Positions 15,713 to 57,581 of a stretch of DNA of 64,000 nt are shown in pieces. A model generated the notes under the pieces. It was given only the letters and a program-made list of their open reading frames with translations, was not told where the DNA came from and did no database searches. The stretch comes from a virus (Duplodnaviria; Heunggongvirae; Uroviricota; Caudoviricetes), in IMG/VR virus record IMGVR_UViG_3300006919_000037; one strand, written 5' to 3'. The stretch's first letter is position 1; each line of letters begins with the position of its first letter. A program made the translations under genes and the position numbers.

Positions 15713-17262
15713 TCCAACCCTCTTCTGACCTTCTCAGCCTTGATACTCTCAAGCATCTTCAATTCTTCGATCATCATACTCTTATATTTCTTCCGATCAT
15801 CATAGAGAATTCTCATCACCTCACCAAGAAAGCTTTCATTGTTGGTGCTGAAAAACTCACCATTTGGGGTCAGGTTAACCTTCCATGGATATAGTGTTGA
15901 CAGATCGAATTCCCTATTCACTAATTTGTCTGGTGTTATGATCGGGTTCTCACGTGAAAACTCTTTCATCTGGTCATTATAATTTTCAACAGGAATGAAC
16001 GTCTCAGGTGAAATATTATAACCCATCATCAAATGGGGATACAGGCCGTCCAAGTCAAATGATGCAACATAATCATGCATACCAACCAGAACCGGCTTCA
16101 CATAGGCACCCTTGTAACGTGAATCCTTTGAACTATCTTTCATGGGATTAACCACAACACCCTTTGACATAAGGTGATTGGTCATAATGGCATCCCACAT
16201 CCTAACCTGTGCAAACACATCTTCATAGTTTACCTTGGCCGTATATGCCAGTGCAAACATCAGGTCAAACAGACTCAGCTTCCGGTCAAGACCAGATACG
16301 ATATCAATATCTCTTACGTTGTAGTCAAGATATTTCTGGTAATCTATCTTGTACAATGAGTGGAGATTCTTGACTTCTGAATAGTCCAGCTTCGACATCC
16401 CCAACTCATTGAACCCAACCGTGTCCAGCTTTAGATTTTCCTGCTGTTTGGAGCTTGGTGCAAACTTCTTATATGCCAGCATGTAATCGATCTGGTCAAC
16501 CCCATAAATGCTATAGAACTTATCACGGGTATTCCATTCCACGTTCACACGTTCCTGATACTCCACAACACCCCAAGGTGACAACATGTCTATGTAGGAC
16601 TCACCAAGAATCTTACCGATCCGGTTGACGATATATGGCATATCGAACATCAGTGAATTCCAGCCGGTGATAACATCTGGCCAGTTCTTGATCCAGATTT
16701 CAAGGAACATCCTCAACAGATGCTCTTCAGATTCACATTCTATGTATTTGAGATTTTTACGGTCTGTCTTGTAACCATCCGGCATCAGTCCAAACTTGTC
16801 ATGACCTAACACGATGATCTTGTCATCATTAAACGTCATGGAGATTGCCGTCATTTCTTCCGTGCACTCCCATGGGTCTGGAAATCCATTTTCAGACATG
16901 ACCTCAATGTCAAGGTTTACAACAAGAATGAACTTCTTGTCATATGGCACCATGTCAGGGTAATTCTCATAGATATAAGAATATTCATGTTTCAGGTTTC
17001 CATATACGTCAAAACCCTCAACGTCCTTGTACTGTTTGATGTATTTCCAAACGTCCCATATATCACCGGGCTTGACAGGTATAACCGGCTTGCCATCAAT
17101 ATTGGTCAAGCCGGTCACTTCTTTACTCTTCAAATATATGGTAGGCTCATATTTGATCTTTTCACGGACCCGTTTTGGCTTACCATTCTCATCAAAGTGG
17201 ACACCCCTATAAAGAATGTGTCCCTTGTACTGACGTACATTGGTGTAAAAGTTTTTGGTCAT
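15709..17262 (-). CDS. 43: DNA polymerase family B, N-terminal part (exonuclease plus N-terminal polymerase region; 43A)
   Basis: N-terminus alignable to T4 gp43; Exo I LVVNLDIEV, Exo II YNVRDI, motif A DLDGLYP; ends just before motif B. Confidence 0.85.
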   Translation of the reverse strand: MTKNFYTNVRQYKGHILYRGVHFDENGKPKRVREKIKYEPTIYLKSKEVTGLTNIDGKPVIPVKPGDIWDVWKYIKQYKDVEGFDVYGNLKHEYSYIYENYPDMVPYDKKFILVVNLDIEVMSENGFPDPWECTEEMTAISMTFNDDKIIVLGHDKFGLMPDGYKTDRKNLKYIECESEEHLLRMFLEIWIKNWPDVITGWNSLMFDMPYIVNRIGKILGESYIDMLSPWGVVEYQERVNVEWNTRDKFYSIYGVDQIDYMLAYKKFAPSSKQQENLKLDTVGFNELGMSKLDYSEVKNLHSLYKIDYQKYLDYNVRDIDIVSGLDRKLSLFDLMFALAYTAKVNYEDVFAQVRMWDAIMTNHLMSKGVVVNPMKDSSKDSRYKGAYVKPVLVGMHDYVASFDLDGLYPHLMMGYNISPETFIPVENYNDQMKEFSRENPIITPDKLVNREFDLSTLYPWKVNLTPNGEFFSTNNESFLGEVMRILYDDRKKYKSMMIEELKMLESIKAEKVRRGLE

Positions 17263-43368: not shown

Positions 43369-43443
43369 TGGTACAAGCAACAGGGTTTGAACCTGTGATA
43401 TCAGTTCCACAAACTGATGTGTTACCCACTACACTATGCTTGC
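43369..43443 (-). tRNA. tRNA-His (anticodon GUG)
   Basis: anticodon stem TCAGT/ACTGA, loop TTGTGGA, D-stem GTGT/ACAC, T-arm ACAGG-TTCAAAC-CCTGT, CCA; base -1 (T) can pair with discriminator A. Confidence 0.75.
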
Positions 43444-43449
43444 ATGAAT

Positions 43450-43524
43450 TGGCTGGACTGATAGGATTCGAACCTACATATAACAAGTTAACAGCTTGCT
43501 CTCTTACCAGTTGAGTACAGTCCA
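43450..43524 (-). tRNA. tRNA-Asn (anticodon GUU)
   Basis: acceptor TGGACTG/CAGTCCA, anticodon stem GCAAG/CTTGT, loop CTGTTAA, T-loop TTCGAAT, CCA. Confidence 0.75.
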
Positions 43525-43539
43525 ATAATTCTTCTACAT

Positions 43540-43767
43540 CTATTTAGTCTTTTTTGTACACTTCAACGAGATTCTGATAACCCCGTAATTCTCTTTCAGA
43601 TATTCTTTGTGCTCACGATACAAGGCACGGGCTTTACGTCTTTCGAGTCTACACTCCTGATACGAGTTAAAAACCACTGGTGTAAGCTTTGGGTGAATTT
43701 TCTCACCCCTTACCCAACCTGAATTTGATACCAGCACGATTGCCGATAGAACGAATATGTTAAGCAT
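43540..43767 (-). CDS. small secreted basic protein
   Basis: signal peptide MLNIFVLSAIVLVSNSGWVRG. Confidence 0.4.
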   Translation of the reverse strand: MLNIFVLSAIVLVSNSGWVRGEKIHPKLTPVVFNSYQECRLERRKARALYREHKEYLKENYGVIRISLKCTKKTK

Positions 43768-43816
43768 CTTGTAATCCCGTATATAGGTTTAATGTGAGTG
43801 AGTGTCAAGCACTAAA

Positions 43817-44092
43817 TCACTGCAAATTATCCCGAAACATATCCGAAATCAGTCTTGAATTCTTCTCCAACAGGTCCACAACTTCCTGTTTCAATGCATT
43901 AACCCGTTTATTCAGTTCAGTATCATCAATATCAGTATTGGATTTCCACTCAGCAATTTGCTGCAAGGCCACGTCCTTGTCATCACACCTCTCCATCATC
44001 TGTTTCACAACCATACTGGAGAACAAATCCACGAGAGTCTGTTCAATAATATCATCCAACTGTTCTATAAGCACTTCGTTATCCATTACCAT
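43817..44092 (-). CDS. hypothetical acidic protein (start trimmed to avoid tRNA overlap)
   Basis: ORF-track start 44158 reads through tRNA-Thr. Confidence 0.35.
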   Translation of the reverse strand: MVMDNEVLIEQLDDIIEQTLVDLFSSMVVKQMMERCDDKDVALQQIAEWKSNTDIDDTELNKRVNALKQEVVDLLEKNSRLISDMFRDNLQ

Positions 44093-44105
44093 TTTTCCTT
44101 TTTTC

Positions 44106-44179
44106 ATGGTGCCGACACAGGGAATTGAACCCAGATTTCTGCAATACCACAGCAGCACTCTACCATTGAGCTATATCGG
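44106..44179 (-). tRNA. tRNA-Thr (anticodon GGU), U-U mismatch closing the anticodon loop
   Basis: acceptor GCCGATA/TGTCGGC, anticodon arm CTGCT-GTGGTAT-TGCAG, CCA encoded. Confidence 0.65.
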
Positions 44180-44294
44180 CCTAATTAAATTAGACGGGCC
44201 TCTCTCTGTCTTTCCTGTATGATCACTATTACACAGAGGGTTGCACTTTGTTCGAATTTGCCATGCAACTAGCCCCTCAAGACCCATCTAAACT

Positions 44295-44369
44295 TGGTAT
44301 CCCCAAGGGGATTTGAACCCCTGTCACCGGCTTGAGAAGCCGACATCCTGACCACTAGACGATGGGGAC
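44295..44369 (-). tRNA. tRNA-Glu (anticodon CUC)
   Basis: anticodon stem TCGGC/GCCGG, loop TTCTCAA, T-arm AGGGG-TTCAAAT-CCCCT, CCA. Confidence 0.7.
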
Positions 44370-44375
44370 AGAATT

Positions 44376-44464
44376 TGGTGGGAACTGGACGGAATCGAAC
44401 CTCTTGCCTTAAGGAACCGGTTTACAGCCGGTCAGTGGACCATCCACTCTTACTTGCAGTTCCC
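44376..44464 (-). tRNA. tRNA-Tyr-like (anticodon GUA), type II, possibly degenerate (T-stem does not pair)
   Basis: acceptor GGGAACT/AGTTCCC, perfect anticodon arm ACCGG-CTGTAAA-CCGGT, variable hairpin CCTTAAGG, T-loop TTCGATT but no complementary T-stem; CCA. Confidence 0.45.
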
Positions 44465-44848
44465 AATGTTGTATTTTTCATATTTCTTACCAACAACAAT
44501 ACTGCTTTTAACATTTGGTTTTGGTAAGAAATACATCGTTCCTTCTTCAGTTAAAACGAATAAATCATCATATTGTACAAGATCAGCAGTTTTATGTACA
44601 TAGTTTTTTTTACTATTTCCACCTAAAACTCTTAAACCAACTTCATAACCACCGGTTGATTTTCTCTGACTTGTTGTTTTTATAGACACTCTTCTCAACC
44701 CCCTATCAGGATCATCTACAACCAAGTCATAATCTTGACTATCTGTTAATGGTATGGAAACAGCCCAACCAAGTCTACTGAAATATGATATTGCATAACC
44801 CAGACCAACATCACCTTGTTTTTTTGTGTTTACACTACTTTCAAACAT
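44450..44848 (-). CDS. putative PD-(D/E)XK-type nuclease (Hjc/VRR-NUC-like)
   Basis: N-terminal GDVGLGYAISYFSRLGWAVSIPLTDSQDYDLVVDD pattern typical of restriction-endonuclease-fold proteins; embedded in tRNA cluster. Confidence 0.35.
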   Translation of the reverse strand: MFESSVNTKKQGDVGLGYAISYFSRLGWAVSIPLTDSQDYDLVVDDPDRGLRRVSIKTTSQRKSTGGYEVGLRVLGGNSKKNYVHKTADLVQYDDLFVLTEEGTMYFLPKPNVKSSIVVGKKYEKYNIGNCK

Positions 44849-45062
44849 ATTTAACCCTAACTGTCTGTTATACAGTTATTTAGGGAACTTTACCTTTCCA
44901 GTGACTTGAGCAAGACCTTTCTTGGCTTCTTCTGGAAATTCTTTCCATAAAGCTTGAAGCTCAGAAGCATAAGGCACTGTGCCATGAAATCCAGAAGTAA
45001 AACTATCTTCTATGATAGCTAATTTTTTTTCATATTCTGTTTTCATAATATATCCTATAAAT

Positions 45063-45140
45063 TGGTACTACCGACCGGATTCGAACCGGCATTCCCCTGC
45101 TTGAAAGGCAAGTATCCTATTCCAGTTAGACGACAGTAGC
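45063..45140 (-). tRNA. tRNA-Glu (anticodon UUC)
   Basis: anticodon stem CTTGC/GCAGG, loop CTTTCAA, T-arm GCCGG-TTCGAAT-CCGGT, CCA. Confidence 0.7.
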
Positions 45141-45232
45141 ATAATTTGGTCAACACCAACTCAGTTAAAACAGATCAACCCTCTAGGGATATCTTTCAGT
45201 AATACCGGTTAACTAGATGCAAACCAAATAAT

Positions 45233-45308
45233 TGGTGCTCGTGGAGAGAGTCGAACTCACACTGACTGGTTCCTAAAACCAGTGCCTCTGCCATTGGGCT
45301 ACACGAGC
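45233..45308 (-). tRNA. tRNA, class I scaffold with Leu-type anticodon UAG
   Basis: perfect 7-bp acceptor GCTCGTG/CACGAGC, clean 6-bp anticodon stem ACTGGT/ACCAGT, loop TTTAGGA, short variable region, CCA; paralog of 23069..23145 and 33541..33616. Confidence 0.7.
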
Positions 45309-45353
45309 ATTGTTATTCATCTATATATAGAGACACAACATGTTTGTCAAGAA

Positions 45354-45854
45354 CTATTTAGGCAAAATTTCATAGGGATCGATAGTCTGTATCTTCAGCT
45401 TCGGTATTTTATCACCCGTCCCATCCAGTTCCAAACCCAACAGGACACCAAAACCCTTCATCTTCTTCTTCATGGCTTCCCTAAGTTCCTTGGCACTTTC
45501 TTTCGTATATGGGATTTCATAAGCCCGTGGCTTACTGTTGAAATTCAGGTGCAACAGTTCTTCTACACGTGTGGTTTCACGATCTGGATCATAGACCCAC
45601 ACATAAATCAACCCATCCGGGTTTTTGGGTGTAGGGTCCTTGATAGAAGCCCATATCATTGAATTGTCTTTACCCATCACGGCTGTTGTGGGGAAACCCC
45701 TGTATGTCATCAGTGACCAGTAATTCCCCGTAGCAGCCACAATAAGCAGCACACCCAGCATGATAACATGGGTTGACATCCTACCCACCATGATCATCCA
45801 AAGAATGAACAAGGCTATGAACGAGAAGAATATCACCATCAAAAAATCGATCAT
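45354..45854 (-). CDS. membrane protein (two N-terminal TM helices plus soluble domain), third gene of the TolQ/TolR-like module
   Basis: MIDFLMVIFFSFIALFILWMIMV and VIMLGVLLIVAATG hydrophobic helices. Confidence 0.4.
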   Translation of the reverse strand: MIDFLMVIFFSFIALFILWMIMVGRMSTHVIMLGVLLIVAATGNYWSLMTYRGFPTTAVMGKDNSMIWASIKDPTPKNPDGLIYVWVYDPDRETTRVEELLHLNFNSKPRAYEIPYTKESAKELREAMKKKMKGFGVLLGLELDGTGDKIPKLKIQTIDPYEILPK

Positions 45855-46498
45855 CGTAATGTCTCCCCGGCTCCAAGCTTCACTATTGGTATGAAATCAT
45901 CACCCTGATTGACAAAGAATCCGTCATTATCCAACCTGAACCTGACAAAGGTTTTTTCCTGCCATGTCATCTCGAAAACCTTTTTAACCATATGGACAAT
46001 CCTATACCGGTTTATTTTAACCACTCTCAGTTTAACCGGCACGGTAATCGGTACACCAGTTTGATAGGCATTTGATCCGTTACATTTATACAGATGTCCA
46101 TTAACAATGTATTCACCGGGGACCATCCCTCTCAGTGTCCACACCTCACGATTTTCTTCACCTTGAATTTTTCTTTTACTTCCAGATGGACTAAACGTAT
46201 CAGTTCTGATTCCCTGATCATCCCGTTCCAGATGCATGTATTTGTTGTTGAGGTACAGGAAATGGATCGGCTTCCCTTTGTCGGGACCCTGCACCCATAA
46301 GTCAACATCACAATCGATATCATCCGGCCATTCCATCTCAATGAAATACTCAGCACGTTTGATGATGTTGCCCTCATCTTTGGATATTGGATTGATCAAC
46401 AGAATAGCCAGAACGAACGATACAATGACCATGAACAGGACAGTGAACAACATGTCTGAAAATATGTTGCTGGCCCCAGTCTCTTTACTCAACTTCAT
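45851..46498 (-). CDS. ExbD/TolR-like protein (N-terminal single TM) with C-terminal extension
   Basis: N-terminal NIFSDMLFTVLFMVIVSFVLAILL resembles ExbD/TolR N-I-x-P-x-I/V-D-V-x-L-V-L-L-I-I-F-M; start overlaps stop of TolQ-like gene. Confidence 0.4.
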   Translation of the reverse strand: MKLSKETGASNIFSDMLFTVLFMVIVSFVLAILLINPISKDEGNIIKRAEYFIEMEWPDDIDCDVDLWVQGPDKGKPIHFLYLNNKYMHLERDDQGIRTDTFSPSGSKRKIQGEENREVWTLRGMVPGEYIVNGHLYKCNGSNAYQTGVPITVPVKLRVVKINRYRIVHMVKKVFEMTWQEKTFVRFRLDNDGFFVNQGDDFIPIVKLGAGETLR

Positions 46499-46949
46499 GG
46501 GAATGCACCATGTTCATTACTACCAATTGCCCCTTGAGTAACAGACTGGTTATCAACCCAACAATAGTTGTCAGAAGAGCCGTTGATAGTGCTAGGAAGA
46601 TATTCTGCATCATCTCAATAATCTCTGTCTGCTCATTTGGATCGATCTTGATTGTGGATATGGACTCCACTGATATCATCAACCCAATCACCGTCCCCAA
46701 CAACCCAAGTGCTGGTAGATGGTTTGCAATGAACATCTGCAACTCAAAGACATCATCACTATTTTTCCCTGATCTAATCTCAAAAAAGAAAGATAGAAGG
46801 GTTGCCATATAGACAACCCCGATAAGGAATGAAATATAAGTGATGTCTTTGGAAGCTATCCATGAGTATATGTCAAAATAACCTAACCAGAAGATTGCTA
46901 GAAGATTGGAAATACTGAACAATACAAAGAATATTGTAGATTTTGTCAT
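46485..46949 (-). CDS. MotA/TolQ/ExbB-family proton-channel protein (minimal, 154 aa)
   Basis: LPALGLLGTVIGLM matches the conserved P-x-x-GLLGTV-x-G-M motif of TolQ/ExbB/MotA; followed by ALSTALLTTIVGLITSLL helix; two N-terminal TM helices. Confidence 0.6.
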   Translation of the reverse strand: MTKSTIFFVLFSISNLLAIFWLGYFDIYSWIASKDITYISFLIGVVYMATLLSFFFEIRSGKNSDDVFELQMFIANHLPALGLLGTVIGLMISVESISTIKIDPNEQTEIIEMMQNIFLALSTALLTTIVGLITSLLLKGQLVVMNMVHSHEVE

Positions 46950-46954
46950 CTTTA

Positions 46955-48040
46955 TTATTCCACTTCTCTTATTCCTATACCCAGTGAGTTATCTTCATAT
47001 AAGGGTAATGTACTTATCAAATAGTCGGCACATCTACTTATAGATTCCCGAACCTTCACCTTGGCTTTCCAACCAAGCTTATGTTTGATATTCTCAACAG
47101 CCGGTACTCTGTATTTAACATCATCCGGATAGGACTTTGAAGTATTGAATTCTAGTGGTGGAAAACTAGGTGGTAGATAACCCTTCTCCATTCCAACCTC
47201 ACGAATAATCATAGCCAATTCTCTCATGGTGATTGGCTCTTGGTTACCAATATTCATGGCCGTGTTTGTAGGATGCTCCAGAGTATCGATAATTGGTTCA
47301 ATCACATCATCAATCCATGTGAAGCACCGGACTTGATTTCCATCACCTATAATGTCAAGACGGTGCTCTCTATTCATCAAGATCGTGTTAAAGAAATCAG
47401 CAAACACGTGGGAATCACCCAATGATTCCCCAGCAGTTTCATATGGTGTTATGATATTGAATGGTCTCCAGATAGAATACGGTAAAGCATATTGCTTATT
47501 GTATGCCCTGACCATTCTTTCGTTCACCACCTTACTCAAACCATAATCAGTCTTTGGAATGGGTGGATGTATGTTACTGCCCTTGTAATCATACATGTGG
47601 GATTCATGTGAAGGAATGAGTCCAATAGATACACTCTCATAAACCATAGACGATGAGATGAAAACGAAGTTCTCAACATCTGTGCATGTGGCAGCAGCTT
47701 CCAAACAGTTTGCATTGATAGCTGTGTCACGACCCAAAATATCAGCAGCAAATCTATTGAAGCCCCCAACACCGTAAATGGTTGCAGCACCCTGAATGAT
47801 AACATCCGGCTGGTATGCTGTGAACAGGTCCATAACGACTCTACGATTTGTCAGGTCTGCTTCCATGAACAAACAGTCATCATCTGTCAGGTTCTGATTA
47901 CGTCTACCGTGCCGGGACAGATTGTCGATCCCCATGATATGGTAGTCTGTCTTGAACCATCCAAGGGTTTTGATGATGTGACTCATCAAACTGCCATCAG
48001 AGCCACACACTATAATTTTTTTCATGTCTATTCTTTCCAT
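46955..48040 (-). CDS. NAD-dependent sugar epimerase/dehydratase (SDR family)
   Basis: Rossmann IIVCGSDGSLMSHI and catalytic YGLSK (YxxxK); start set at MERIDM (48040; an alternative ATG lies at 48025); ORF-track start 48094 overlaps the upstream gene. Confidence 0.7.
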   Translation of the reverse strand: MERIDMKKIIVCGSDGSLMSHIIKTLGWFKTDYHIMGIDNLSRHGRRNQNLTDDDCLFMEADLTNRRVVMDLFTAYQPDVIIQGAATIYGVGGFNRFAADILGRDTAINANCLEAAATCTDVENFVFISSSMVYESVSIGLIPSHESHMYDYKGSNIHPPIPKTDYGLSKVVNERMVRAYNKQYALPYSIWRPFNIITPYETAGESLGDSHVFADFFNTILMNREHRLDIIGDGNQVRCFTWIDDVIEPIIDTLEHPTNTAMNIGNQEPITMRELAMIIREVGMEKGYLPPSFPPLEFNTSKSYPDDVKYRVPAVENIKHKLGWKAKVKVRESISRCADYLISTLPLYEDNSLGIGIREVE

Positions 48041-49299
48041 GGATTGTATGTAATCACACCGGGTGACATCATCGGCAAGTGCCACTGGAACCATTCTTTA
48101 TCGAATACCTTGTGTGGTGTCATAACCACAACAGCATCCACACCACTCACCAGAAGATGTGTACGAGCTTGGATCATTCCTTCAACATATGGGTCATACA
48201 TGGTCACTTTCAAGCCGTGCCTCTTACAAATCTTCTTGAATTTGTATGATAGTGAGTTTCGAATATCATCAGACTCAGCCTTGAAAGCAGCACCAAGAAT
48301 CAAAACCCGGTCAATAGTTTTTCCAACACGTGCAGCCTTGATCATCATCTGATCATAAACAAATTCCGGCATACTCTCATTGATATGGAAAGCTGTGCTT
48401 ATCAGTTCAGGGAAAGCAAATTTTGTAGTAAGGAATTTACCATCCTTGAATAGGCACGGCCCACCCACGTTTGGTCCCGGCTTGGGAACATCAAGTCTTT
48501 CATACCCCTCATTGAAGTCCTCAATCATCTCAAATGCATCAACGTCATATTGCTTACACACCATGTACATTTCGTTGGCAAATGCAAAATTCACATAACG
48601 GTACATATTGGTCATCAGCTTGCCGATTTCAGCAGCTTCATATGGCATGAATTTATACACAACCCCAAGAGTTTTGATGAACTCCCAAAGTTTGGCATGA
48701 ACACCCACACCCTCTTCATCAGGATCGACCCCAATCATCCAATGGTGTTTGGTAGTCTCCACCAACCCCTTACCCTGTGCAACACGTTCTGGGATGAAGT
48801 AAACGTCTACCCGGTTTTTGATCTGTAACATTGGCACACCACCATAGTAGTTGATCTTATTGAACAGCCGTTTTTTGAAAAGACGTGTAGTGCCGGGTGC
48901 AACTGTCGATCTTAGTATTATGGCCTTGGTCCCACCAGACTTGATGTTTTCGGCAATGGCTGTTCCAATTGTGTCGGCCAACTCCATGATGTCATCAATA
49001 CGTGGGTTACCTTCATCATCAACCGGTGTACCGATCATGATAGCAATAATATCAGACTTTTTGAGAGAGTCGTATTCGGTTGTGAAGAACAGGTTGCTTC
49101 CAACATACTTTTTAAGCTGTTCCTGACCACCTTCTTCAATGAAAGGCATCTCACCCCGGTTCAACTGACTGACCCGTTCCTGAGACAGGTCTATTCCATA
49201 CACAATGTTATCTGGACGTGAGCACACCAGTGAGAACGGAATCCCCACATGACCACCAGCCCCAATTATAGATACAATCATAATCTTTTTTCTCTCCAA
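48028..49299 (-). CDS. UDP-glucose/GDP-mannose dehydrogenase family protein
   Basis: N-terminal Rossmann SIIGAGGHVG and GGPCLFKDG (family GG-x-C-x-x-KD motif); likely true start MIVSIIG at 49281. Confidence 0.75.
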   Translation of the reverse strand: MERKKIMIVSIIGAGGHVGIPFSLVCSRPDNIVYGIDLSQERVSQLNRGEMPFIEEGGQEQLKKYVGSNLFFTTEYDSLKKSDIIAIMIGTPVDDEGNPRIDDIMELADTIGTAIAENIKSGGTKAIILRSTVAPGTTRLFKKRLFNKINYYGGVPMLQIKNRVDVYFIPERVAQGKGLVETTKHHWMIGVDPDEEGVGVHAKLWEFIKTLGVVYKFMPYEAAEIGKLMTNMYRYVNFAFANEMYMVCKQYDVDAFEMIEDFNEGYERLDVPKPGPNVGGPCLFKDGKFLTTKFAFPELISTAFHINESMPEFVYDQMMIKAARVGKTIDRVLILGAAFKAESDDIRNSLSYKFKKICKRHGLKVTMYDPYVEGMIQARTHLLVSGVDAVVVMTPHKVFDKEWFQWHLPMMSPGVITYNPWKE

Positions 49300-49751
49300 C
49301 GTTCAGGGTAATCTGTGCACACACCACCAATATTTGTGTAAAAATCCTGATCAAAGTCAGAAGCTGAGTTTTCAGGCAGTGCTAATATCGTCATATTTGT
49401 GTAACCCTTCCCCGTAGAATGGGCAAGTGGATGCATCCATACCCAACCCCATGATGTTAGGGTGTAATCATCAGTATCATGCCAAAAATAGTGGGCATCT
49501 TTGTTTGAGAGGAAACCCAATGCTTCAACATTCTTGGCATGTAGAATCACCTGATACTTGATCTGGGCAAGGAAATCCCAAGAAACCTTATGTTCCGGAA
49601 AGTCATGGCCAAGCCAACATTCACCCTCTACATACCAAAAATCAATCTCTACATTAAATTGAGCAGATATTGCTTTGTTGATTTGGCTTGGATGATTTTC
49701 CCATTGTCTGTTTGACCCATCCAGATTTCCACGATGGCTGTATATCTTCAT
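49278..49751 (-). CDS. glycerophosphodiester phosphodiesterase-like (GDPD family) protein
   Basis: IYSHRGN at N-terminus and EIDFWYVEGECWLGHD (GDPD HR-x-E-x-D-H pattern). Confidence 0.5.
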   Translation of the reverse strand: MKIYSHRGNLDGSNRQWENHPSQINKAISAQFNVEIDFWYVEGECWLGHDFPEHKVSWDFLAQIKYQVILHAKNVEALGFLSNKDAHYFWHDTDDYTLTSWGWVWMHPLAHSTGKGYTNMTILALPENSASDFDQDFYTNIGGVCTDYPERWREKRL

Positions 49752-50350
49752 CTATAAAACTCCACATTACATTCCTTACCCACGTCATCCGGTTTTACAT
49801 CATACTTGAACCCACAGAAGTCCAAGTATTTCGTAACATTAGACAGATTGTTGCCCGTACCCTGATACAGTTCAACCGTGTAAGCACATTCCAGCCGACC
49901 GGCTTTTAGATCGTTTATGTAATGGCCCATAGATAGCAGCACATTGTAATCATTACCTTGTGCATCAATCCACATGTAGTCAATATCACCCTCTATTTTG
50001 AACACTTCAATGAACGTCTCCAATCTCATACACGGTACAGGATAGGAATGAGTCATCTTGAAGTCTGACCGGTTTTCCCACTTCTCGTGGATTTTCTCAT
50101 CAAACTCATAAAGACTAGAACAGCCCCAGTCACCCTGACCGGCAATATTGAACGTCTTGAAACCATCCTCAATATCAACAGCCATTGGGATGATATTGAC
50201 TCGTGGGTCATTGAATTTGGGCCACAATGCTTGGGATACCAATTCCCGTGTGGGTTCAAATCCGTAATATGTGTGTGTCGGGTATTTGTCCAGTAACGGC
50301 TGTGTGTCTGAGCCGGTGTTAACACCAATCTCGAATATGTTTTTAGTCAT
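49748..50350 (-). CDS. FkbM-family SAM-dependent methyltransferase
   Basis: IFEIGVNTG at trimmed N-terminus, GFEPT and MWIDAQGNDYNVL; start moved to ATG 50350 (8-nt overlap with MazG-like gene). Confidence 0.5.
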   Translation of the reverse strand: MTKNIFEIGVNTGSDTQPLLDKYPTHTYYGFEPTRELVSQALWPKFNDPRVNIIPMAVDIEDGFKTFNIAGQGDWGCSSLYEFDEKIHEKWENRSDFKMTHSYPVPCMRLETFIEVFKIEGDIDYMWIDAQGNDYNVLLSMGHYINDLKAGRLECAYTVELYQGTGNNLSNVTKYLDFCGFKYDVKPDDVGKECNVEFYR

Positions 50351-50681
50351 CCACGACATCCTCTGGCTTACTTGATTGCATAAACTTCTCAAGCTTTATA
50401 ATTTTCTTTTCAATCTGATTTTCTACTATTGCTGCATTTATCAAATCCACATCCGGTTCCAGAGACATTGTGATAACAGCCATCAAATCACCCAATTCAA
50501 TAGACAGACGTTCCCGGTTCGTATGTGGTTGGCCGGGTTGAACTTCGTGTATACCAAATCTCAACATCTTGGTAGCACGTTGCTGCACTTCAGCAGCTTC
50601 TTCAATAAGGATGGTTAGAAGCTCACGTTCATATGGTGTTGGTAGTGGTTCTGGTGTTACAAATTTTTCAGTCATGTTCAA
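50343..50681 (-). CDS. MazG-like nucleotide pyrophosphohydrolase (small all-alpha NTP-PPase)
   Basis: LIEEAAEVQQ and ELGDLMAVI helices carrying the E-x-x-E / D metal-binding pattern. Confidence 0.55.
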   Translation of the reverse strand: MNMTEKFVTPEPLPTPYERELLTILIEEAAEVQQRATKMLRFGIHEVQPGQPHTNRERLSIELGDLMAVITMSLEPDVDLINAAIVENQIEKKIIKLEKFMQSSKPEDVVDD

Positions 50682-50730
50682 TCCTATACATAAAGGTGGG
50701 CCGGGTTTTCGTCAATCATAGCTTCATCAT

Positions 50731-52116
50731 CTAATTATCCCTCAAGAACGTGTTTAGGTCTTCCGGAGTACCAATCCCCCACATACGGTCTATCTGCTTG
50801 ACACGGACCTTCTTACCGGCTTCTATGGCTTGATTAAAGACAGGGCACACATAGAACTCACCATTGGTCCGGATATCCTTCTCAATCATCTGTTCAGCAA
50901 ACTTCACATAGTCCTTACCATGTGACCAATAATACAAACCAACTGTTGCATTGTCAGATATTGGTTGCTTCTCAGCCACCTCTGATACGAATCCATCATC
51001 ACCCACCTTGGCATATGACCATTTTGGATGTGTTGATTTGAATGTCAGTATCCCGGCATCAATCCCATCAGCCTTGAATGCATACATACATTCATTGGAA
51101 TCCCACTCTATATACTGGTCTGAGTTACAGATCAATAGTGGATTTGAGTTGTTGATCAGGTTCTTGGCCAACAGAGTCGTGCAGGCAGCACCCTCAGTCA
51201 CCCCATCAACCTGAATTATCTCACAACCCGGTGTGATCAATTCCAACATGTATTTGAGATTGTATTTCTTGTAGTGTTCCTTCTGGACAATGTAGATAAA
51301 ATTGGCCTCAATGTTAAGGTTCTCCACAACCAACTGGATCATTGGTTTACCTTTGACCTCAATCAATGGCTTTGGAAACGTGTAACCGGCATCAGCAAAT
51401 CTGGAACCGGCTCCGGCCATGGGGATCAACACGTTCAGCTTATTGTCATTCCATTTCATTTTGATCTGTCCACTCTGCTTCATGTCGAGCCATTCCATCT
51501 GACTCATGATTTTCTCACGTGTCAAATCACGTGGGTCCTCAACTTCCAGAAGATGTGCACCGGAAGCCACTGCACCTTCACGACCGATATGAGAATCCTC
51601 AACGATAATTGTAGATGCTGGAATTGCATTACATTCTATCATACACTTCCAGTACATGTCAGGATATGGCTTCGATCTTTCCACATCCTGATTAGATACC
51701 ATATAGTCAAAGTATTCCAGAATTCCAAGAGACTTCAGGGAAGTTTCAACCGTTTCACGGATTGCATTTGAAGCACATGCCAGTTTGTAGCCGTTCAGCT
51801 TTATCCAGCTACACAACCCGATCAGATACAGGTTCTTCTTGGTCTTGTTCAGTAGAAATTCCTTGGTGTAATGTTGTTTACTTCTCCATATATGACCATG
51901 ATAATGTTCTGGCAGATTCTTCTCATCTGTCAACATCTTCAGTTTTCTGGATGTGGATAAACCGTCATAACGTGATAGATGCTCTTCACGAGTAATAACA
52001 AAGTCATCAGCTATCTCAGCTAGAGCCATGTTCAGGGTTTCGTAGTGGATTTCACGTGAGTCTATCAACACCCCATCAAGATCGAATATGATAAGCTTGT
52101 TGTATGTGTTAATCAA
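50731..52116 (-). CDS. bifunctional HAD phosphatase/phosphomutase - sugar-1-phosphate nucleotidyltransferase
   Basis: N-terminal HAD motifs IIFDLDGVLIDS, CASNA, SKPYPDMY, EDSHIG; C-terminal LIPMAGAGSRF and PKPLIEVKGKPMI (G-x-G-x-R and KPM NTP-transferase signature). Confidence 0.7.
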   Translation of the reverse strand: MINTYNKLIIFDLDGVLIDSREIHYETLNMALAEIADDFVITREEHLSRYDGLSTSRKLKMLTDEKNLPEHYHGHIWRSKQHYTKEFLLNKTKKNLYLIGLCSWIKLNGYKLACASNAIRETVETSLKSLGILEYFDYMVSNQDVERSKPYPDMYWKCMIECNAIPASTIIVEDSHIGREGAVASGAHLLEVEDPRDLTREKIMSQMEWLDMKQSGQIKMKWNDNKLNVLIPMAGAGSRFADAGYTFPKPLIEVKGKPMIQLVVENLNIEANFIYIVQKEHYKKYNLKYMLELITPGCEIIQVDGVTEGAACTTLLAKNLINNSNPLLICNSDQYIEWDSNECMYAFKADGIDAGILTFKSTHPKWSYAKVGDDGFVSEVAEKQPISDNATVGLYYWSHGKDYVKFAEQMIEKDIRTNGEFYVCPVFNQAIEAGKKVRVKQIDRMWGIGTPEDLNTFLRDN

Positions 52117-52810
52117 ATGTTTTCACCTCTACACATCTCAGATCATCAAAAACTGCAACACAAAGCTTACCACCAAACACAGCACCCCCATCAATATTAA
52201 GACGACCCTCATCAACCCTCAACTCACCATCCTTTGATAAAAACGTTTGTATAATCACACGATGATACGGCTCCTTGCTGATCGGTGTGTGACCATGGAC
52301 AACAACAGCACCCGGAACCGGCACATTCATGTAGTTTCTGGACCACAGCATTGTATCCTTCTGTTCTGGTGTATTTTCACCCTCAAGATACACTGGCAGG
52401 AAATTGGAATGAACACAGATCACTTCATGGTTGTCACCAAACGTGACATAGTATGGAAGGTTTTTCATCCATACAACATCCGATAGGAAAGCTTCCCTCT
52501 CAGCTTTAGAATCTGTATACAATTGCTGATATGAGAATAGAGTTTCCCTACCCCCATTCATCATCCATGAGTCTTCCAACCCACTATCCCACATGAACAT
52601 TTCATGATTACCCATCACGACATGCTTGGTTCCCACCGGCTCCCACTCACGTACCGACTTTACAACCAATGCAGATTCCGGACCACGATCAATCAGATCA
52701 CCCAGAAACACCACATGGTCTTCAGGCTCCATCTGTGTCTCTATCCATTCACGTGCTTTCATATACACGTTAAACATTCCGTGTATGTCACCTATAGCAA
52801 ATATTTTCAT
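52109..52810 (-). CDS. Ser/Thr-phosphatase-type metallophosphoesterase (lambda-PPase/ApaH-like)
   Basis: IFAIGDIHG, VFLGDLIDRG, GNHE and VHGH motifs. Confidence 0.7.
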   Translation of the reverse strand: MKIFAIGDIHGMFNVYMKAREWIETQMEPEDHVVFLGDLIDRGPESALVVKSVREWEPVGTKHVVMGNHEMFMWDSGLEDSWMMNGGRETLFSYQQLYTDSKAEREAFLSDVVWMKNLPYYVTFGDNHEVICVHSNFLPVYLEGENTPEQKDTMLWSRNYMNVPVPGAVVVHGHTPISKEPYHRVIIQTFLSKDGELRVDEGRLNIDGGAVFGGKLCVAVFDDLRCVEVKTFD

Positions 52811-53628
52811 GAGTATTTTTTACCTTCTGGAACTGGTATGCATATAAACATATCCCTCATTGCATTCAACCCTTCTTGTGGCATTTCATACAAGTGCCAC
52901 TTATTGGGTTTCAACAACTTCGTGTATGTGTCCATACACAACCCTATCTTGATCCGGGCACCACGAAGTCTCTGGGACCACTCGATATCCTCTTCATCAC
53001 CCCAACATCTGGATTCATCCAATGGAATTGCTTGAAGAACTTCTATGTTTGCAGTGATCATCCCACCGGAGATGTATTGCATGTTTGTCATGTCTTGAAC
53101 TTCATACGGCACACCACAGACATACTTTGGATCATTTTCATTGGGTGCAACCTGCATGAAAAGGTTTCTCAGTTGTGGTTGACGTTCCAACATAGCCGTA
53201 ACGAATCTCTGATCCAACAACCAGTCTGAATGTCTCTCACCTTCCATGGTGTATATTGGATTGACCACGACTTGGATGTGATCGTTATCATCCCACCATT
53301 TTAATATCTTATCAACCCAATCCGGTTGAAATTCATAATAGTCATGGACCAGACACACTTTGTCAAATCCATACTCATGGGCCACGTTGACCAGAAGATT
53401 CTTCTTCTGTGTGATCCAACCCTTTCGTGGTTCATCATAATAATATGGATAGAACGAACCCATATGCTTCGATTGATCGATCAGTTCCCTATAACCAATC
53501 ACAGCCACCATACCATGAGGCATATCAAATTGACTAATAGCCGACCCGATACATTTATCAAGTGTCTCTATGTCCGTTGTCGGACCTGCACAAATTCCAA
53601 TAAACATATCACCACTTCCTCTTGTCAA
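52807..53628 (-). CDS. hypothetical protein in glycan island
   Basis: 273-aa ORF, no motif recognised. Confidence 0.4.
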   Translation of the reverse strand: MTRGSGDMFIGICAGPTTDIETLDKCIGSAISQFDMPHGMVAVIGYRELIDQSKHMGSFYPYYYDEPRKGWITQKKNLLVNVAHEYGFDKVCLVHDYYEFQPDWVDKILKWWDDNDHIQVVVNPIYTMEGERHSDWLLDQRFVTAMLERQPQLRNLFMQVAPNENDPKYVCGVPYEVQDMTNMQYISGGMITANIEVLQAIPLDESRCWGDEEDIEWSQRLRGARIKIGLCMDTYTKLLKPNKWHLYEMPQEGLNAMRDMFICIPVPEGKKYS

Positions 53629-54646
53629 GTTCGATCAGGACATCTTCGATATCATCAACCGTGCAACCTATCGAATGGTTCTGAACCACATACCGATAAC
53701 CTTCATATTCGTTGAAATAATTATCCATACCCACACAGTTCCACCAGTCTCTGTCATCATCCTGATATACATACTCAATAAATTCCATCAACTCAGGTTC
53801 TGAGTCATACACGAATCCATGCTTCTGAAGTTTGAGAGCACCCGGTGTTTTACGAGCAAACCATGGCACACTATGATACATAGCCTCAAGCAGAACCAAC
53901 CCAAACCCTTCTTCATAGGAATTTAGTATATAACCATTGGATTTGTGGATGGCCCACTGAACTTCATCAAATTCTGCATCCGTGATCACCCGTACTTGAT
54001 CAGTTTGTTGTGGTGCATTCTCAGGCATACCATATCCATAGAGTACCAGTTTAGCATCAATAGGAGAAAAGTTCCAAGCATCAGCTAATTCCGTCATAGC
54101 CTTGTGTGGATAAAAACCACCAGCCGAAACGAAGTATGGCACATCCTCTTTCACAAAATCACGATTCATATAAGCTTCAGGTGCTGATATAGCATCACCC
54201 ATTTTGATACCATGTCTGACTCTTCTTGCCTTGTCGAGATACCCGGCATTGGCAATATGATTCAGATCAGCCACGGTGGAGTATCCAAGGAAATCTGAAA
54301 ACCTCATCCCATGCATACATATATCAGAGTTTGACGGCTTGATGATCATGTACAGGATTGGTGACCGGATGTTGAATGAGTGTTGGTGGACAATGTTCTG
54401 CATATGGACATCACCACCATGGACCACAATAAGGTCCCACTGACGGTTTAACGTCTCAGTAGGGTTATCCACCACCCACACACCATTATGCTTACCCTGA
54501 ACGGCCCTATGCTCTCCTGTGAGCACTGTAACCGTGTGGCCACGTGCCAGAGCTTCTTCAGCCATTTGTTGTGTGTAATATTCAGAACCACCCGGAAATG
54601 GAGCATACCGGTGGACTACAAACAGGATATTTTTTGGAGTGTTCAT
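53609..54646 (-). CDS. glycosyltransferase family 1 (GT4-like, GT-B fold)
   Basis: C-terminal E-x7-E region GFGLVLLEAMYHSVPWFARK; N-terminal ILFVVHRYAPFPGGSE. Confidence 0.7.
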   Translation of the reverse strand: MNTPKNILFVVHRYAPFPGGSEYYTQQMAEEALARGHTVTVLTGEHRAVQGKHNGVWVVDNPTETLNRQWDLIVVHGGDVHMQNIVHQHSFNIRSPILYMIIKPSNSDICMHGMRFSDFLGYSTVADLNHIANAGYLDKARRVRHGIKMGDAISAPEAYMNRDFVKEDVPYFVSAGGFYPHKAMTELADAWNFSPIDAKLVLYGYGMPENAPQQTDQVRVITDAEFDEVQWAIHKSNGYILNSYEEGFGLVLLEAMYHSVPWFARKTPGALKLQKHGFVYDSEPELMEFIEYVYQDDDRDWWNCVGMDNYFNEYEGYRYVVQNHSIGCTVDDIEDVLIELDKRKW

Positions 54647-54909
54647 TTATTGTACCACATCACATGGGTTGTACCCTCTGGAATCTGTCCAGTCAGGACC
54701 TTCGACGGCATGGCAGCACCATGGATGACATCAGACATACCTACCAATTGATCACCAATTACCCACTGTCCATGTCCATCATAATCAACGAAAGCACCTT
54801 CTTCACATGCATCTGTGAAATCTTCAATAGTCATAAACATGCTATCAAACTCATCACCCCAAAATTCACGGGCTTCTGAAACAGTTTCTCTATAGCTCAT
54901 ATCCACCAT
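54643..54909 (-). CDS. hypothetical acidic protein
   Basis: 88-aa ORF. Confidence 0.35.
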   Translation of the reverse strand: MVDMSYRETVSEAREFWGDEFDSMFMTIEDFTDACEEGAFVDYDGHGQWVIGDQLVGMSDVIHGAAMPSKVLTGQIPEGTTHVMWYNK

Positions 54910-55357
54910 CCTCTGGTTTTACACCAAAATGATACCAGTCTTTCTGTTCAGCCGGTCTCATATTGTCAAATTCTGTGTCGGCATCCACATCACCACAATA
55001 ATCGGTTGAGTAGACCATATAAAGACCTTCTATCACATAGAAGCCTTCCTTGATTCCGTCTTCTAACACACCTTCGACTGTATAGTCAAGCCCCGGCCCA
55101 TAATTATCTTCATAATCAGCACCACCACCTTCATATGCATAGATATCGACAGTTGGTCTATCCCTATGATCCTCATGAAGAACCCGGAAGAGAACAGTGG
55201 ATTTCTCAGATGGATTTGGACAATCATTATCCTCATCAGGCAGTGCTTTTATGTAATCCACAAGATCAAGCTGAAATTCAGTCATTGATAATCTCCACCA
55301 TCCTGTAATCTGTTGTTGTTTTTGTGTATGGAACAACACGGGCAAAGGTAAACTCAC
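54890..55357 (-). CDS. hypothetical acidic protein
   Basis: 155-aa ORF. Confidence 0.35.
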   Translation of the reverse strand: MSLPLPVLFHTQKQQQITGWWRLSMTEFQLDLVDYIKALPDEDNDCPNPSEKSTVLFRVLHEDHRDRPTVDIYAYEGGGADYEDNYGPGLDYTVEGVLEDGIKEGFYVIEGLYMVYSTDYCGDVDADTEFDNMRPAEQKDWYHFGVKPEDGGYEL

Positions 55358-55580
55358 CCTGATTCACAAGATCAGACATCACAGACGGCACACCACTACT
55401 GGTCCATTCCATAACATAGAACAGACCTCTAATCAGGTAAACCTCACGGATTTTCTCCCGACCATCATCTGTCATAAACCGTGACACGGATATGACCTTC
55501 TCTACTAGAAGATCATCAAGCCACATATCAACGAATTCTGCTTTGGTAACCATTTTCATATCCTCATCCATAATGCACAA
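55278..55580 (-). CDS. hypothetical protein
   Basis: 100-aa ORF. Confidence 0.35.
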   Translation of the reverse strand: MCIMDEDMKMVTKAEFVDMWLDDLLVEKVISVSRFMTDDGREKIREVYLIRGLFYVMEWTSSGVPSVMSDLVNQGEFTFARVVPYTKTTTDYRMVEIIND

Positions 55581-56484
55581 ACGTCTCCCACCAATCTAGG
55601 AAGTTATCGGTATTCACACAAGCTGGTGGGACGTTATTTTTCCACACGGGTTGATTTACCATCTTCAACCACTTGCTTCTATCGGAATCAATTTCCTTGA
55701 CCACCTCAACAACCTCATTGAAATTGGTGTAGTCATGGACATTGATAAATCTGTCTGGATTGAAGTCACGGTGGACAAACGAGCTACCGAAATAAATTGG
55801 AATCACCCCTGCATATAGAGCATCCAGAATCTTCTCAGTGACATAACCGGGATATGTACCATTCTCAAATGCTATATTGAATTTACGTTGCTTTACGAAA
55901 TCCATCTTGTGACGTGGGTCATCACGTGGCAGGACATATCCAATATTATTGAACAAGGGTCCACCACAATCAACCTGTTTGTATTTACTCAATGTCTCAA
56001 CAAAATGATTCCGGATAGGCTGGTTTGGGTTGGACTGGACAAACGTACAGAACCCGGACGGCACATCAGCATCAGTTTTGCTCAACAAACTATTCAGGTG
56101 TAGAACATCACTCGTAACACCCTCTGCCTTGTACATATGCATCTCTGGTACGTATAGAGGCAGTCTGTAATGCTTTGGTGAGTTCTCATGGTCAAACGTT
56201 ATGGCCCTGTCATAGGTCCAGTAATTTGGACGGAAATTCTCACCCGTGTACAGGATACGGACACAGTTCTGATACTTGTAGTGTTCTTCACCAAAATTCG
56301 GATCACCGAAAATCAGATAGTCACACTCTTCGGGTTTGACTACTTCAACATGATATCTCTCACCCAACACACCAGTGAAGAATTTTTCAGCCGTGCCGAA
56401 TGTTGACGAAAATCCAAGTCTAAGTTTTTTCATAGTTTCATTTTCTATCCATATGTTTTGAATATTCAAGCACTCGTTTATCAT
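55564..56484 (-). CDS. alpha-1,3-fucosyltransferase-like glycosyltransferase (GT10)
   Basis: KFNIAFENGTYPGYVTEKILDALYAGVIPIYFGS...RDFNPDRFINVHDY closely matches the GT10 FucT signature (F-x-[LV]-x-FENS-x4-Y-x-TEK ... IP-[IV]-[VY]-x-G). Confidence 0.8.
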   Translation of the reverse strand: MINECLNIQNIWIENETMKKLRLGFSSTFGTAEKFFTGVLGERYHVEVVKPEECDYLIFGDPNFGEEHYKYQNCVRILYTGENFRPNYWTYDRAITFDHENSPKHYRLPLYVPEMHMYKAEGVTSDVLHLNSLLSKTDADVPSGFCTFVQSNPNQPIRNHFVETLSKYKQVDCGGPLFNNIGYVLPRDDPRHKMDFVKQRKFNIAFENGTYPGYVTEKILDALYAGVIPIYFGSSFVHRDFNPDRFINVHDYTNFNEVVEVVKEIDSDRSKWLKMVNQPVWKNNVPPACVNTDNFLDWWETFVHYG

Positions 56485-56615
56485 GTTTGTAGAAGTATTT
56501 CAACCAGATTTTCTTGGAAAACTTACTTACCTTGTAATATCCTTGATAGATAAAGCCGAAATAGTACAGTAATAGAATATAGAGGTTTATCATATAACCC
56601 CTTGGTGTTCGATCA

Positions 56616-57581
56616 TTACTTAACATAAGCCACCAGAATATCAGCACTTATTTCACCATCAACTGTCTCATAGGTGAAATTCGGATTGATTTCCTTGAGG
56701 ATGGTAAGAGCCTGTTCTTCCGTGACTCCGTTCCATTCAGCAGAACCAAACAGTCTTCTGTCATCTATTATTATTGTACTGTTTGGATCATAATGCTCTT
56801 TAATGGCACGAAGTTCTGATAGAATAGGTGTCCCACCATCCTCACCACCGGGCAGGGGTCCAGATGCATGTGCATCAAGCCAGAACGTGGCTAATGGCTT
56901 TGGATTATCTTCCGGCATAGATATAGCAATCTCTTTAATCCACTTTGGACTGTCACCACAATAGACCATAGCCTCTCTTTCGAACATGATTGCTGCACGT
57001 TCAGCCAGATCATCATCCAGTTCTATTGAGTATATTTCCTTGAACATTTCTGAAGCCACGGCAACCTTTATCCCAAGGCCGAAATACGTTCCAGTCTCAA
57101 TGAAAATATCACCCCTGCCATATTCTTTCAACATACCAACAGTGATATGACATGAATCTGGAGTAGGTTCAGGGATTTTTTCATAGGTTCTTTTCTGGGC
57201 TTCTTCCATCTGCATGGCAATATCCTCATCAACGAAATTCATATCATCGGTTGGCTTGTACCAGAACCAGATATCACCCTCAAGTGTGTGGACCAGAGGT
57301 GTGTGTGAATTCTCCATTCTCCATTGAAAAACTTTCTCATGGTTTACATCATAGAGAAACACCATCCCACCCGGTTGAAGCAGATCATACTCAACAGAGA
57401 AATCCTCATCCATCAGATCACCCTTCCAGATCAATATTGTAGGGTCTCCAACAACATCAGGCTGGACCTCAAGCTTCTTCAACTTCTTCAGCTTATACGG
57501 TTTCAGAATATCCTTATGAACCTTAAATACGGGCTTCTTCTGTCTTTCGATATACACCCATGCCTGACCCAGTTCTTTCAT
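56616..57581 (-). CDS. class I SAM-dependent methyltransferase (TylF/FkbM-like O-methyltransferase)
   Basis: IFIETGTYFGLG glycine-rich SAM motif and acidic SIELDDD motif II. Confidence 0.5.
   Translation of the reverse strand: MKELGQAWVYIERQKKPVFKVHKDILKPYKLKKLKKLEVQPDVVGDPTILIWKGDLMDEDFSVEYDLLQPGGMVFLYDVNHEKVFQWRMENSHTPLVHTLEGDIWFWYKPTDDMNFVDEDIAMQMEEAQKRTYEKIPEPTPDSCHITVGMLKEYGRGDIFIETGTYFGLGIKVAVASEMFKEIYSIELDDDLAERAAIMFEREAMVYCGDSPKWIKEIAISMPEDNPKPLATFWLDAHASGPLPGGEDGGTPILSELRAIKEHYDPNSTIIIDDRRLFGSAEWNGVTEEQALTILKEINPNFTYETVDGEISADILVAYVK

Follow-up and report, generated by a model that had tools for sequence, protein, structure and literature searches.

Why should a tailed phage carry what looks like a complete ion-driven motor of the bacterial inner membrane? 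The question is raised by IMG/VR virus record IMGVR_UViG_3300006919_000037 (Caudoviricetes), of which we analysed a stretch of 64,000 nucleotides (nt), hereafter the window. Three overlapping genes on its minus strand encode small membrane proteins that we call P1, P2 and P3, and a preliminary description of the sequence had placed the three open reading frames (ORFs) exactly where we find them (Table 1). To our knowledge, ion-driven 5:2 motors (MotAB, ExbBD, TolQR, GldLM and ZorAB) are the only known means by which energy is delivered to the periplasm and outer membrane of Gram-negative bacteria. Each newly characterized motor of this class has revealed a new cellular process. On the evidence below, the triad is probably a compact phage version of a conserved three-component motor of the inner membrane, one that most likely turns the ion gradient of the host into work on the envelope during infection.

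P1 is a channel subunit of the MotA/ExbB/TolQ superfamily

P1 matches the Pfam family PF01618 (MotA_ExbB) with 35.9 bits (E=7e-9; gathering cut-off 22.9), and a homologue in a Pelagibacteraceae metagenome-assembled genome (MAG) scores 30.9 bits against the same model. P1 is thus a genuine channel subunit of the MotA/ExbB/TolQ superfamily, as the preliminary description had proposed from a channel motif. That description had also named two outcomes that would speak against it: that the motif might be a fortuitous resemblance, which is clearly wrong given that P1 passes PF01618, and that P2 might have no ExbD match, which is what we found.

A profile built from 38 phage and bacterial P1 sequences (A7) retrieved solved A subunits from the PDB. 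The best sequence-profile match was PomA (E=5e-7), followed by type I ZorA (E=1e-5), MotA (E=8e-5) and TolQ (E=4.5e-4), and the profile aligns two segments of P1, GLLGTVIG (residues 82-89) and TALLTTIVGL (residues 123-132), with the two channel helices of all four proteins. The region of LPALGLLGTVIGLM pairs with GMIGTLVGL of PomA, and the second segment pairs with ALLTTLYG. Across the 38 sequences, G82, G85 and G89 in the first segment and A124, L125, T127 and T128 in the second reach at least 90% conservation, with G131 invariant. A structure search returned ZorA as the closest fold, then MotA and TolQ. The family-specific models for ZorA, TolQ and ExbB match P1 weakly and below threshold, those for ZorA at 12-20 bits against cut-offs of 100-700. 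A narrower profile (A5), whose sole match was the V-ATPase c subunit at E=0.37, is superseded by A7.

The preliminary description took the fold of P1 to be reduced to two or three transmembrane helices. All four are kept, as hydrophobic, helical segments at about residues 3-24, 39-59, 69-98 and 107-153, and the part that is reduced is the cytoplasmic portion. Bacterial P1 homologues, of about 245 amino acids (aa), have a cytoplasmic insert of 60-90 residues between helices 2 and 3 and a C-terminal tail; the phage copies and some marine bacterial copies have neither.

P2 combines a near-invariant aspartate with a predicted TerD-like head

The second protein has no match in the Pfam models (including PF02472 ExbD, for which there was none at E<=1), in NCBIfam or in PADLOC, and 40 other members of its family have no match either, with the exception of one weak hit to DUF2135. 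P2 is not a member of the ExbD/TolR family, and the homology proposed earlier falls away; the resemblance of its N-terminal membrane segment to that of ExbD and TolR holds at the level of architecture: there is one helix, and a near-invariant Asp marks the end of it that faces the cytoplasm. The AlphaFold2 model (predicted local distance difference test, pLDDT, 80.9) has a helix at residues 9-35 with strands after it, and the hydrophobic core spans residues 17-35, behind a short cytoplasmic N-terminus. Asp15 lies two residues ahead of this core and is Asp in 95% of 339 aligned relatives, in which every other position of residues 1-45 is at most 72% conserved and the membrane helix otherwise varies. 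We take this position to be equivalent to the ion-binding Asp of ExbD (D25), TolR (D23) and MotB (D32).

Beyond the membrane, the predicted periplasmic domain of P2 is modelled as an all-beta sandwich whose best fold matches are TerD proteins. The alpha/beta fold of ExbD and TolR was not seen, and neither protein is among the top 60 fold matches of this domain; a fold search of P2 against BFVD gave weak matches only. Nor does P2, or any of 41 family members, have an OmpA-family Pfam match, and a peptidoglycan-binding domain of the MotB/ZorB type is missing. From TerD proteins P2 differs in that it has no TerD Pfam match, is membrane-anchored and predicted to be periplasmic, and shows an identity of 11-12%. 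The same 339 sequences share an invariant acidic cluster (D64, D66, D93, D94 and E118), and the modelled head may bind Ca2+.

The family has a long and a short form, set apart by some 11 extra residues between the motifs RDDxG and N-x-E (residues 97-118 in the window protein). The long form is found in the window, in T4-like phages and in all 80 of the best bacterial loci, and the short form in phage 16-3 and many Alphaproteobacteria-type sequences. We considered the insert as a phage-specific trait and rejected the idea, since all 80 bacterial loci have it. At some loci the P2 ORF is 255-298 aa long, against about 200 aa (L013:3613-4470, L091-L093, L096-L098, L108 and L116); the extra length at L013 is an acidic, Ser/Glu-rich C-terminal extension past the beta-sandwich.

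P3 is a third, two-pass membrane protein

P3 is harder to trace. A word-index search found only P3 itself, tblastn against phages found nothing, and no relative of the family was found in Pfam or the PDB. Homology was recognized because a third gene occupies the same position in related loci, and then by a hidden Markov model (HMM) built from six third-gene sequences. The members share a common build: two N-terminal helices, a G(W/F/Y)P motif, IYvW, PRAY.lPY with an invariant Pro-Arg, a further helix, a variable linker and a C-terminal motif in which LP-x-K is conserved and the terminal Lys is invariant in 30 of 30 sequences (alignment A6). The two membrane helices foreseen for the 166-aa protein are thus conserved across the family. 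Public gene callers begin P3 at Met26 (141 aa), which removes the first membrane helix. We prefer the 166-aa reading because that helix is conserved in the family alignments (A6) and because the ATGA start fits an overlap found elsewhere.

The three genes form a translationally coupled unit

P1 is coupled to the single-pass P2, and P2 in turn to P3, by the two overlaps listed in Table 1, as the preliminary description had it. The 14-nt overlap also occurs in contigs L004/L005 and L006, in the contigs carrying P0005 and in the bacterial locus L007, and the ATGA overlap in L006, a 46%-identical relative, and in L007, a bacterial chromosome fragment. Both overlaps recur in near-identical metagenomic contigs. 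We regard operon coupling as a conserved feature because the same overlaps are found from phage contigs to a bacterial chromosome.

Table 1. Positions of the triad and of its notable segments in the window
Feature	Position	Strand	Description
P1 (A subunit)	46485..46949	minus	154 aa; four-helix ion-channel protein of the MotA/ExbB/TolQ/PomA superfamily, cytoplasmic domain nearly absent
P2 (B-like subunit)	45851..46498	minus	215 aa; one N-terminal membrane helix and a predicted periplasmic beta-sandwich
P3 (C subunit)	45354..45854	minus	166 aa; two N-terminal membrane helices, domain probably periplasmic; G(F/W)P, IYvW and PRAY.lPY motifs
P1 residues 78-91, LPALGLLGTVIGLM	46677..46718	minus	Motif of the channel-lining third helix
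P1 residues 123-132, TALLTTIVGL	46554..46583	minus	Fourth-helix motif with conserved Thr-Thr and Gly
P1 stop/P2 start	46485..46498	minus	14-nt overlap; translational coupling
P2 Asp15 codon	46454..46456	minus	Putative ion-binding carboxylate where the membrane helix meets the cytoplasm
P2 periplasmic domain (about residues 48-205)	45884..46357	minus	Predicted TerD-like beta-sandwich with the invariant acidic cluster
P2 stop/P3 start	45851..45854	minus	ATGA overlap (4 nt), from the window sequence
P3 C-terminal tail, LKIQTIDPYEILPK	45357..45398	minus	Local form of the family's terminal motif i.F.DLP.p.LPeK

The triad is a chromosomal operon of Proteobacteria

We were interested in how far the triad extends beyond the window. 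An exhaustive profile search with P2 recovered 2313 cluster representatives (50% identity) at E<=1e-3, 801 of them at E<=1e-30, and nearly all of the 150 best-scoring representatives are 180-230 aa long. A scan of bacterial genomes, one per species and limited to sequence patterns, so that its counts are lower bounds, located P2 at 547 loci or more, almost all of them in Alpha-, Beta- and Gammaproteobacteria. Genomic context was taken from the 80 best of these loci: a P1-type gene lies directly upstream of P2 in 79 and a P3-type gene, detected with the P3 HMM, directly downstream in 77; the exceptions to the full triad include contigs that end at or near it (L060, L012 and L058). Any further gene family is limited to at most 30 of the 80. 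Culturable carriers of the chromosomal operon include Hydrogenophaga, Paucibacter, Hydrocarboniphaga effusa and Rhodopila globiformis. The triad is accordingly a rigid, conserved family with the order P1-P2-P3 and a single orientation, and neither P2 nor P3 has a curated family in Pfam or NCBIfam.

The bacterial neighbours are housekeeping genes, among them TilS, AccA, SufBCD and ABC transporters, and flanks of this kind are also seen in a contig binned to Pelagibacteraceae. Because of these flanks we read the bacterial copies as chromosomal operons and not as parts of prophages or defence islands, and a prophage origin for them was rejected on the same grounds. To judge from the flanks and from the cytoplasmic loop of bacterial P1, the Proteobacteria appear to be the source of the module. 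Two single cases are worth recording: a gammaproteobacterial MAG has the triad twice, on separate contigs (L027 and L044), and L043 has been placed in a MAG of the actinobacterial 'Lysinibacter sp.', beyond the otherwise proteobacterial range, which may reflect a binning error or a phage contig.

Several phage groups carry the complete triad

The preliminary description had the module from one T4-like phage and suggested a search of other T4-like marine phages for the same three genes. The module is not confined to this phage: the family occurs in hundreds of proteobacterial genomes and, by the same pattern-limited kind of scan, in at least 127 IMG/VR contigs with a P2 relative. We retained 80 of these viral loci, from T4-like phages, for context analysis, and the triad is intact in 78. 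Where the contig has room, P1 lies upstream of P2 in 78 of 79 loci and P3 downstream in 78 of 78, and in all loci but one the P1-type ORF, taken as the longest ORF, has a length of only about 144-213 aa. The flanks carry either T4 hallmark genes (Gp23, scaffold, UvsY, UvsW and PolB) or lineage-specific cargo (SbmA/BacA, ClpP and an epimerase), and no gene family besides the triad is present in more than 17 of the 80.

Cultured phages carry the module too. P1 matches 17 cultured phage records, all T4-like Rhizobium phages, and P2 matches 29, from Rhizobium and Sinorhizobium phages. The triad is present in RHph_Y68 (EVB55_150-152), RHph_N3_19 and 16-3, and the HMMs detect all three genes in both the 68-kb RHph_N3_19 and the temperate 16-3. 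In the latter the triad consists of p038, p040 and p042, split by two small ORFs, p039 and p041 (L002, 3196-5132). The triad genes of the cultured Rhizobium phages are all annotated as hypothetical. For the triad of the window, comparison with the PHROGs gave weak matches only, to families of unknown function, and when the DNA of the region was compared with phage records, only tRNA matches appeared. The module has been taken up by several unrelated phage groups.

Some genes found close to the viral triads deserve mention in their own right. An SbmA/BacA-like peptide transporter of the inner membrane is present in 17 of the 80 loci (for example L105:10287-11258, L138:8263-8871 and related loci) and a ClpP protease in 14, often just downstream of P3; a phage-borne SbmA/BacA seems unusual. 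A trypsin-like periplasmic protease, p036, lies just upstream of the triad in phage 16-3, and a trypsin-like peptidase is also found near it in RHph_N3_19.

In the window, the gene neighbourhood brings up a different role. P1 starts 5 nt past an epimerase gene on the same strand, the last member of a co-oriented island that lies directly upstream of the triad (46955 to about 56500; the same genes are found in L004:66-9544). Besides this NAD-dependent epimerase, the island has genes for a UDP-glucose/GDP-mannose dehydrogenase, a Methyltransf_21 protein, a fusion of HAD and nucleotidyltransferase domains, a metallophosphatase, a GT1 glycosyltransferase and a GT10 fucosyltransferase. The preliminary description had noted this adjacency and listed glycan export among several roles that the triad could energize; on this view it would drive the export or assembly of a glycan made by the island. 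The position directly after epimerase and UDP-glucose dehydrogenase genes on the same strand, shared, 5-nt gap included, with the related contig L006, would fit that suggestion, as would an epimerase within 6 kb in 11 of the 80 viral loci. The adjacency itself stands; the partnership does not. The island is only partly common to L006 and is not general, most viral loci, and the bacterial loci with their unrelated neighbours, show no such association, and the Rhizobium phage copies are surrounded by DNA-metabolism genes. Because the glycan island is not a conserved partner, the idea is weakened, and we consider it very improbable.

Genomic setting and expression signals

The window belongs to a T4-like phage, as first described; it encodes UvsX, a helicase of the gp41 type and a gp43 polymerase in two parts, and this polymerase is only about 40% identical to that of any cultured phage. 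This family-B DNA polymerase is divided between two ORFs with a 4-nt overlap, an N-terminal one at 15709-17262 and a C-terminal one at 14612-15712, each of which matches the corresponding half of the polymerase PHROGs. The window has 13 tRNA genes, all on the minus strand between 23069 and 45308, and six of them (43369-45308) lie just downstream of the triad among small ORFs, one of which, at 44450-44848, encodes a PDDEXK_5-family protein. Four nt after the P3 stop begins a near-consensus promoter of the sigma-70 type (45322-45350, minus strand), with TTGACA at 45350-45345, a 17-nt spacer and TATATA at 45327-45322. Only 14 nt separate its end from tRNA-Leu(tag) at 45308-45233, and it has the look of a promoter of the early type that serves the tRNA cluster.

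For the triad itself, we considered the heptamer [ACT]TAAATA, which we take to resemble the late-promoter consensus of T4-like phages. Of 61 non-identical viral loci, 35 have it in the 80 nt that precede P1, against 41 of 271 other same-strand ORFs preceded by a gap (odds ratio 7.6, Fisher p=5e-11), figures to be read in the light of loci that are related to one another and of a motif that is short and AT-rich. Exact copies of TATAAATA occur in the window at the level expected by chance.

Late expression would also suit a device that reads or dissipates the ion gradient, times the holin or loosens the envelope ahead of lysis. Apart from the enrichment of the late-promoter-like motif in the T4-like viral loci, this idea can draw on the fact that all three products are small membrane proteins and on a gene for an M15 peptidase, of the endolysin type, two genes upstream in one related contig. 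The same triad is, however, a chromosomal operon in hundreds of bacteria with no lysis context, the viral loci have no conserved holin, endolysin or spanin neighbour, and the window copy sits in an operon with sugar-nucleotide enzymes. A lysis device is therefore, in our judgement, improbable.

Comparison with known ion-driven systems

In gene order and logic the triad resembles TolQ-TolR-TolA and ExbB-ExbD-TonB. These too have three genes in the order A-B-C; their A subunits likewise belong to PF01618 and have conserved channel helices; their B subunits are single-pass proteins with the N-terminus inside and an Asp at the cytoplasmic end of the helix; and the third protein is membrane-anchored, with its bulk, in P3, probably periplasmic. 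The triad differs from them in its four-helix P1, whose cytoplasmic domain is nearly absent, and in the predicted TerD-like head of P2, a protein without any ExbD/TolR HMM match. The role of P3 may be analogous to that of TolA or TonB, its ancestry is not: it has two hydrophobic helices, one more than the single helix of the TonB/TolA type.

The A subunit is closest to PomA in topology and motifs. MotAB and PomAB share with the triad a four-helix A subunit, the motifs GxxGTxxG and LTT and an overlap of the A and B genes. Unlike them, the triad has no cytoplasmic torque-generating domain, no OmpA-like peptidoglycan-binding domain in P2 and no flagellar context, and it has an obligatory third subunit. 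Viral motA and motB have been reported as auxiliary genes in glacier-ice and GOV 2.0 viromes, with 70 ocean viral contigs carrying motA or motB; these are described as true MotA and MotB, the latter with its peptidoglycan-binding motif, and were read as flagellar (PMC8290583). Like the triad they are phage-encoded and annotated through the MotA family; the published description sets them apart from it, the triad having a different B subunit and a third gene.

A further relative to consider is GldLM/PorLM, the ion-driven motor of gliding and type IX secretion. P2 might be likened to its single-pass B-type subunit with periplasmic beta-sandwich domains; GldM is much larger than P2, and GldL is not a PF01618 member.

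In structure, P1 is most like ZorA. The Zorya defence system has in ZorAB a non-flagellar 5:2 motor, as we propose for the triad, and among the solved structures of ZorAB is, to judge from the title of PDB entry 8qyh, a Ca-binding-site mutant. The likeness invites the view that the triad is a conflict module, an inner-membrane sensor or effector of superinfection exclusion or of counter-defence against Zorya or envelope sensors. That ZorA is the closest solved structure and its HMMs give weak matches would agree with this, as would the mobility of the triad between unrelated phage groups, its varied genome positions and its presence in the temperate phage 16-3. Yet the ZorA HMM scores, at 17-20 bits, are far below the cut-offs of 100-700; the long cytoplasmic tail of ZorA is absent, as are ZorC/D/E partners; the B subunit is unrelated; and no conserved nuclease or effector gene lies nearby. 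The bacterial copies stand among core genes and not in defence islands, also in streamlined genomes of the Pelagibacteraceae type, and PADLOC has no model for P2 or P3. The triad is not a Zorya system by its ZorA score, tail or partners, and we hold a role in conflict to be unlikely. It belongs no more to ExbD/TolR, to MotB/ZorB or to TonB/TolA.

The literature offers no ready precedent. Two recent surveys of MotAB relatives and of TolA/TonB transducers point to many motors with unknown accessory domains that are still undescribed, and no TerD-like B subunit is mentioned in the sections consulted (PMC12505986, PMC12204202). No paper came to light that connects this channel family to TerD or to the triad, or that describes P2, P3 or versions of the module as a phage auxiliary metabolic gene or in pelagimyophages. 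The statement of the preliminary description that the module maps to no described phage function agrees with our search of the literature, which returned no such description.

A candidate force transducer of the envelope

Given these results, we favour a model in which P1 forms the ion-conducting outer ring, of the MotA/ExbB/TolQ/PomA type and expected to be pentameric, around P2 as an axle-like B subunit, presumably in the 5:2 ratio of the known motors. The membrane helix of P2 would contribute Asp15 as the ion acceptor, and its TerD-like, probably Ca2+-binding head would stand in the periplasm. P3 would be a two-pass accessory whose periplasmic domain and conserved C-terminal peptide link the motor to a periplasmic or outer-membrane target, so that a flow of H+ or Na+ through P1 and P2 produces movement or force in the envelope. 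We expect the output to lie on the periplasmic side because phage P1 has no counterpart of the cytoplasmic loop of the bacterial A subunit. That phages retain all three genes with their key residues leads us to think that they need the complete motor. The phage, like many T4-like phages, probably acquired the module from Proteobacteria and would express it, in many relatives probably through late-type promoters, to keep or take over an envelope function of the host. This maintenance or takeover of the host envelope is our default view of its role; superinfection exclusion or counter-defence, lysis timing and glycan export are less supported.

Several observations weigh against the motor model. 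The profile of the P2 family, compared with all PDB sequences, retrieved no ExbD, TolR, MotB or ZorB chain even at E<=10, and what points to P2 as the B subunit is its architecture, its conserved Asp and the order of the genes. For P3, alignment A6 contains no conserved His, the residue that TonB/TolA transducers have in an SHLS motif, and neither Pfam nor PDB yields a TonB_C or TolA domain; its part as a transducer is suggested by analogy. A modest charge bias, with a mean of 1.9 positive charges in the loop between the helices against 0.04 in the N-terminus, suggests that its C-terminal domain faces the periplasm. The window has no late-promoter-like motif directly upstream of P1, and a scan of 44800-57000 for sigma-70 promoters and terminators gave results at or below chance. 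Finally, our search of the literature found no phenotype for the bacterial or the phage module.

A more specific version of the motor model can be put forward tentatively, and we are less inclined to it than to the general one. The triad might be a self-contained force transducer of the Tol/Ton kind, with a Ca2+-binding, TerD-like B subunit and a new transducer, that is kept in streamlined marine Alphaproteobacteria and whose minimal version, with an A subunit of about 150 aa that would be among the smallest known, has been captured repeatedly by T4-like phages and is expressed late for control of the envelope.

Should this version hold, the triad would found a motor family of its own, and no complete motor of the ion-driven 5:2 class would have been known from a phage before it. 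The triad is widespread, on the counts given above, yet unstudied, and the phage copies offer a natural minimal version useful for structural work. The cultured phages RHph_Y68, P10VF and 16-3, together with their hosts, make the module directly testable. The presence of a whole motor in more than 100 environmental T4-like phages and in cultured Rhizobium phages would mean that phages need control of an envelope process that has yet to be described.

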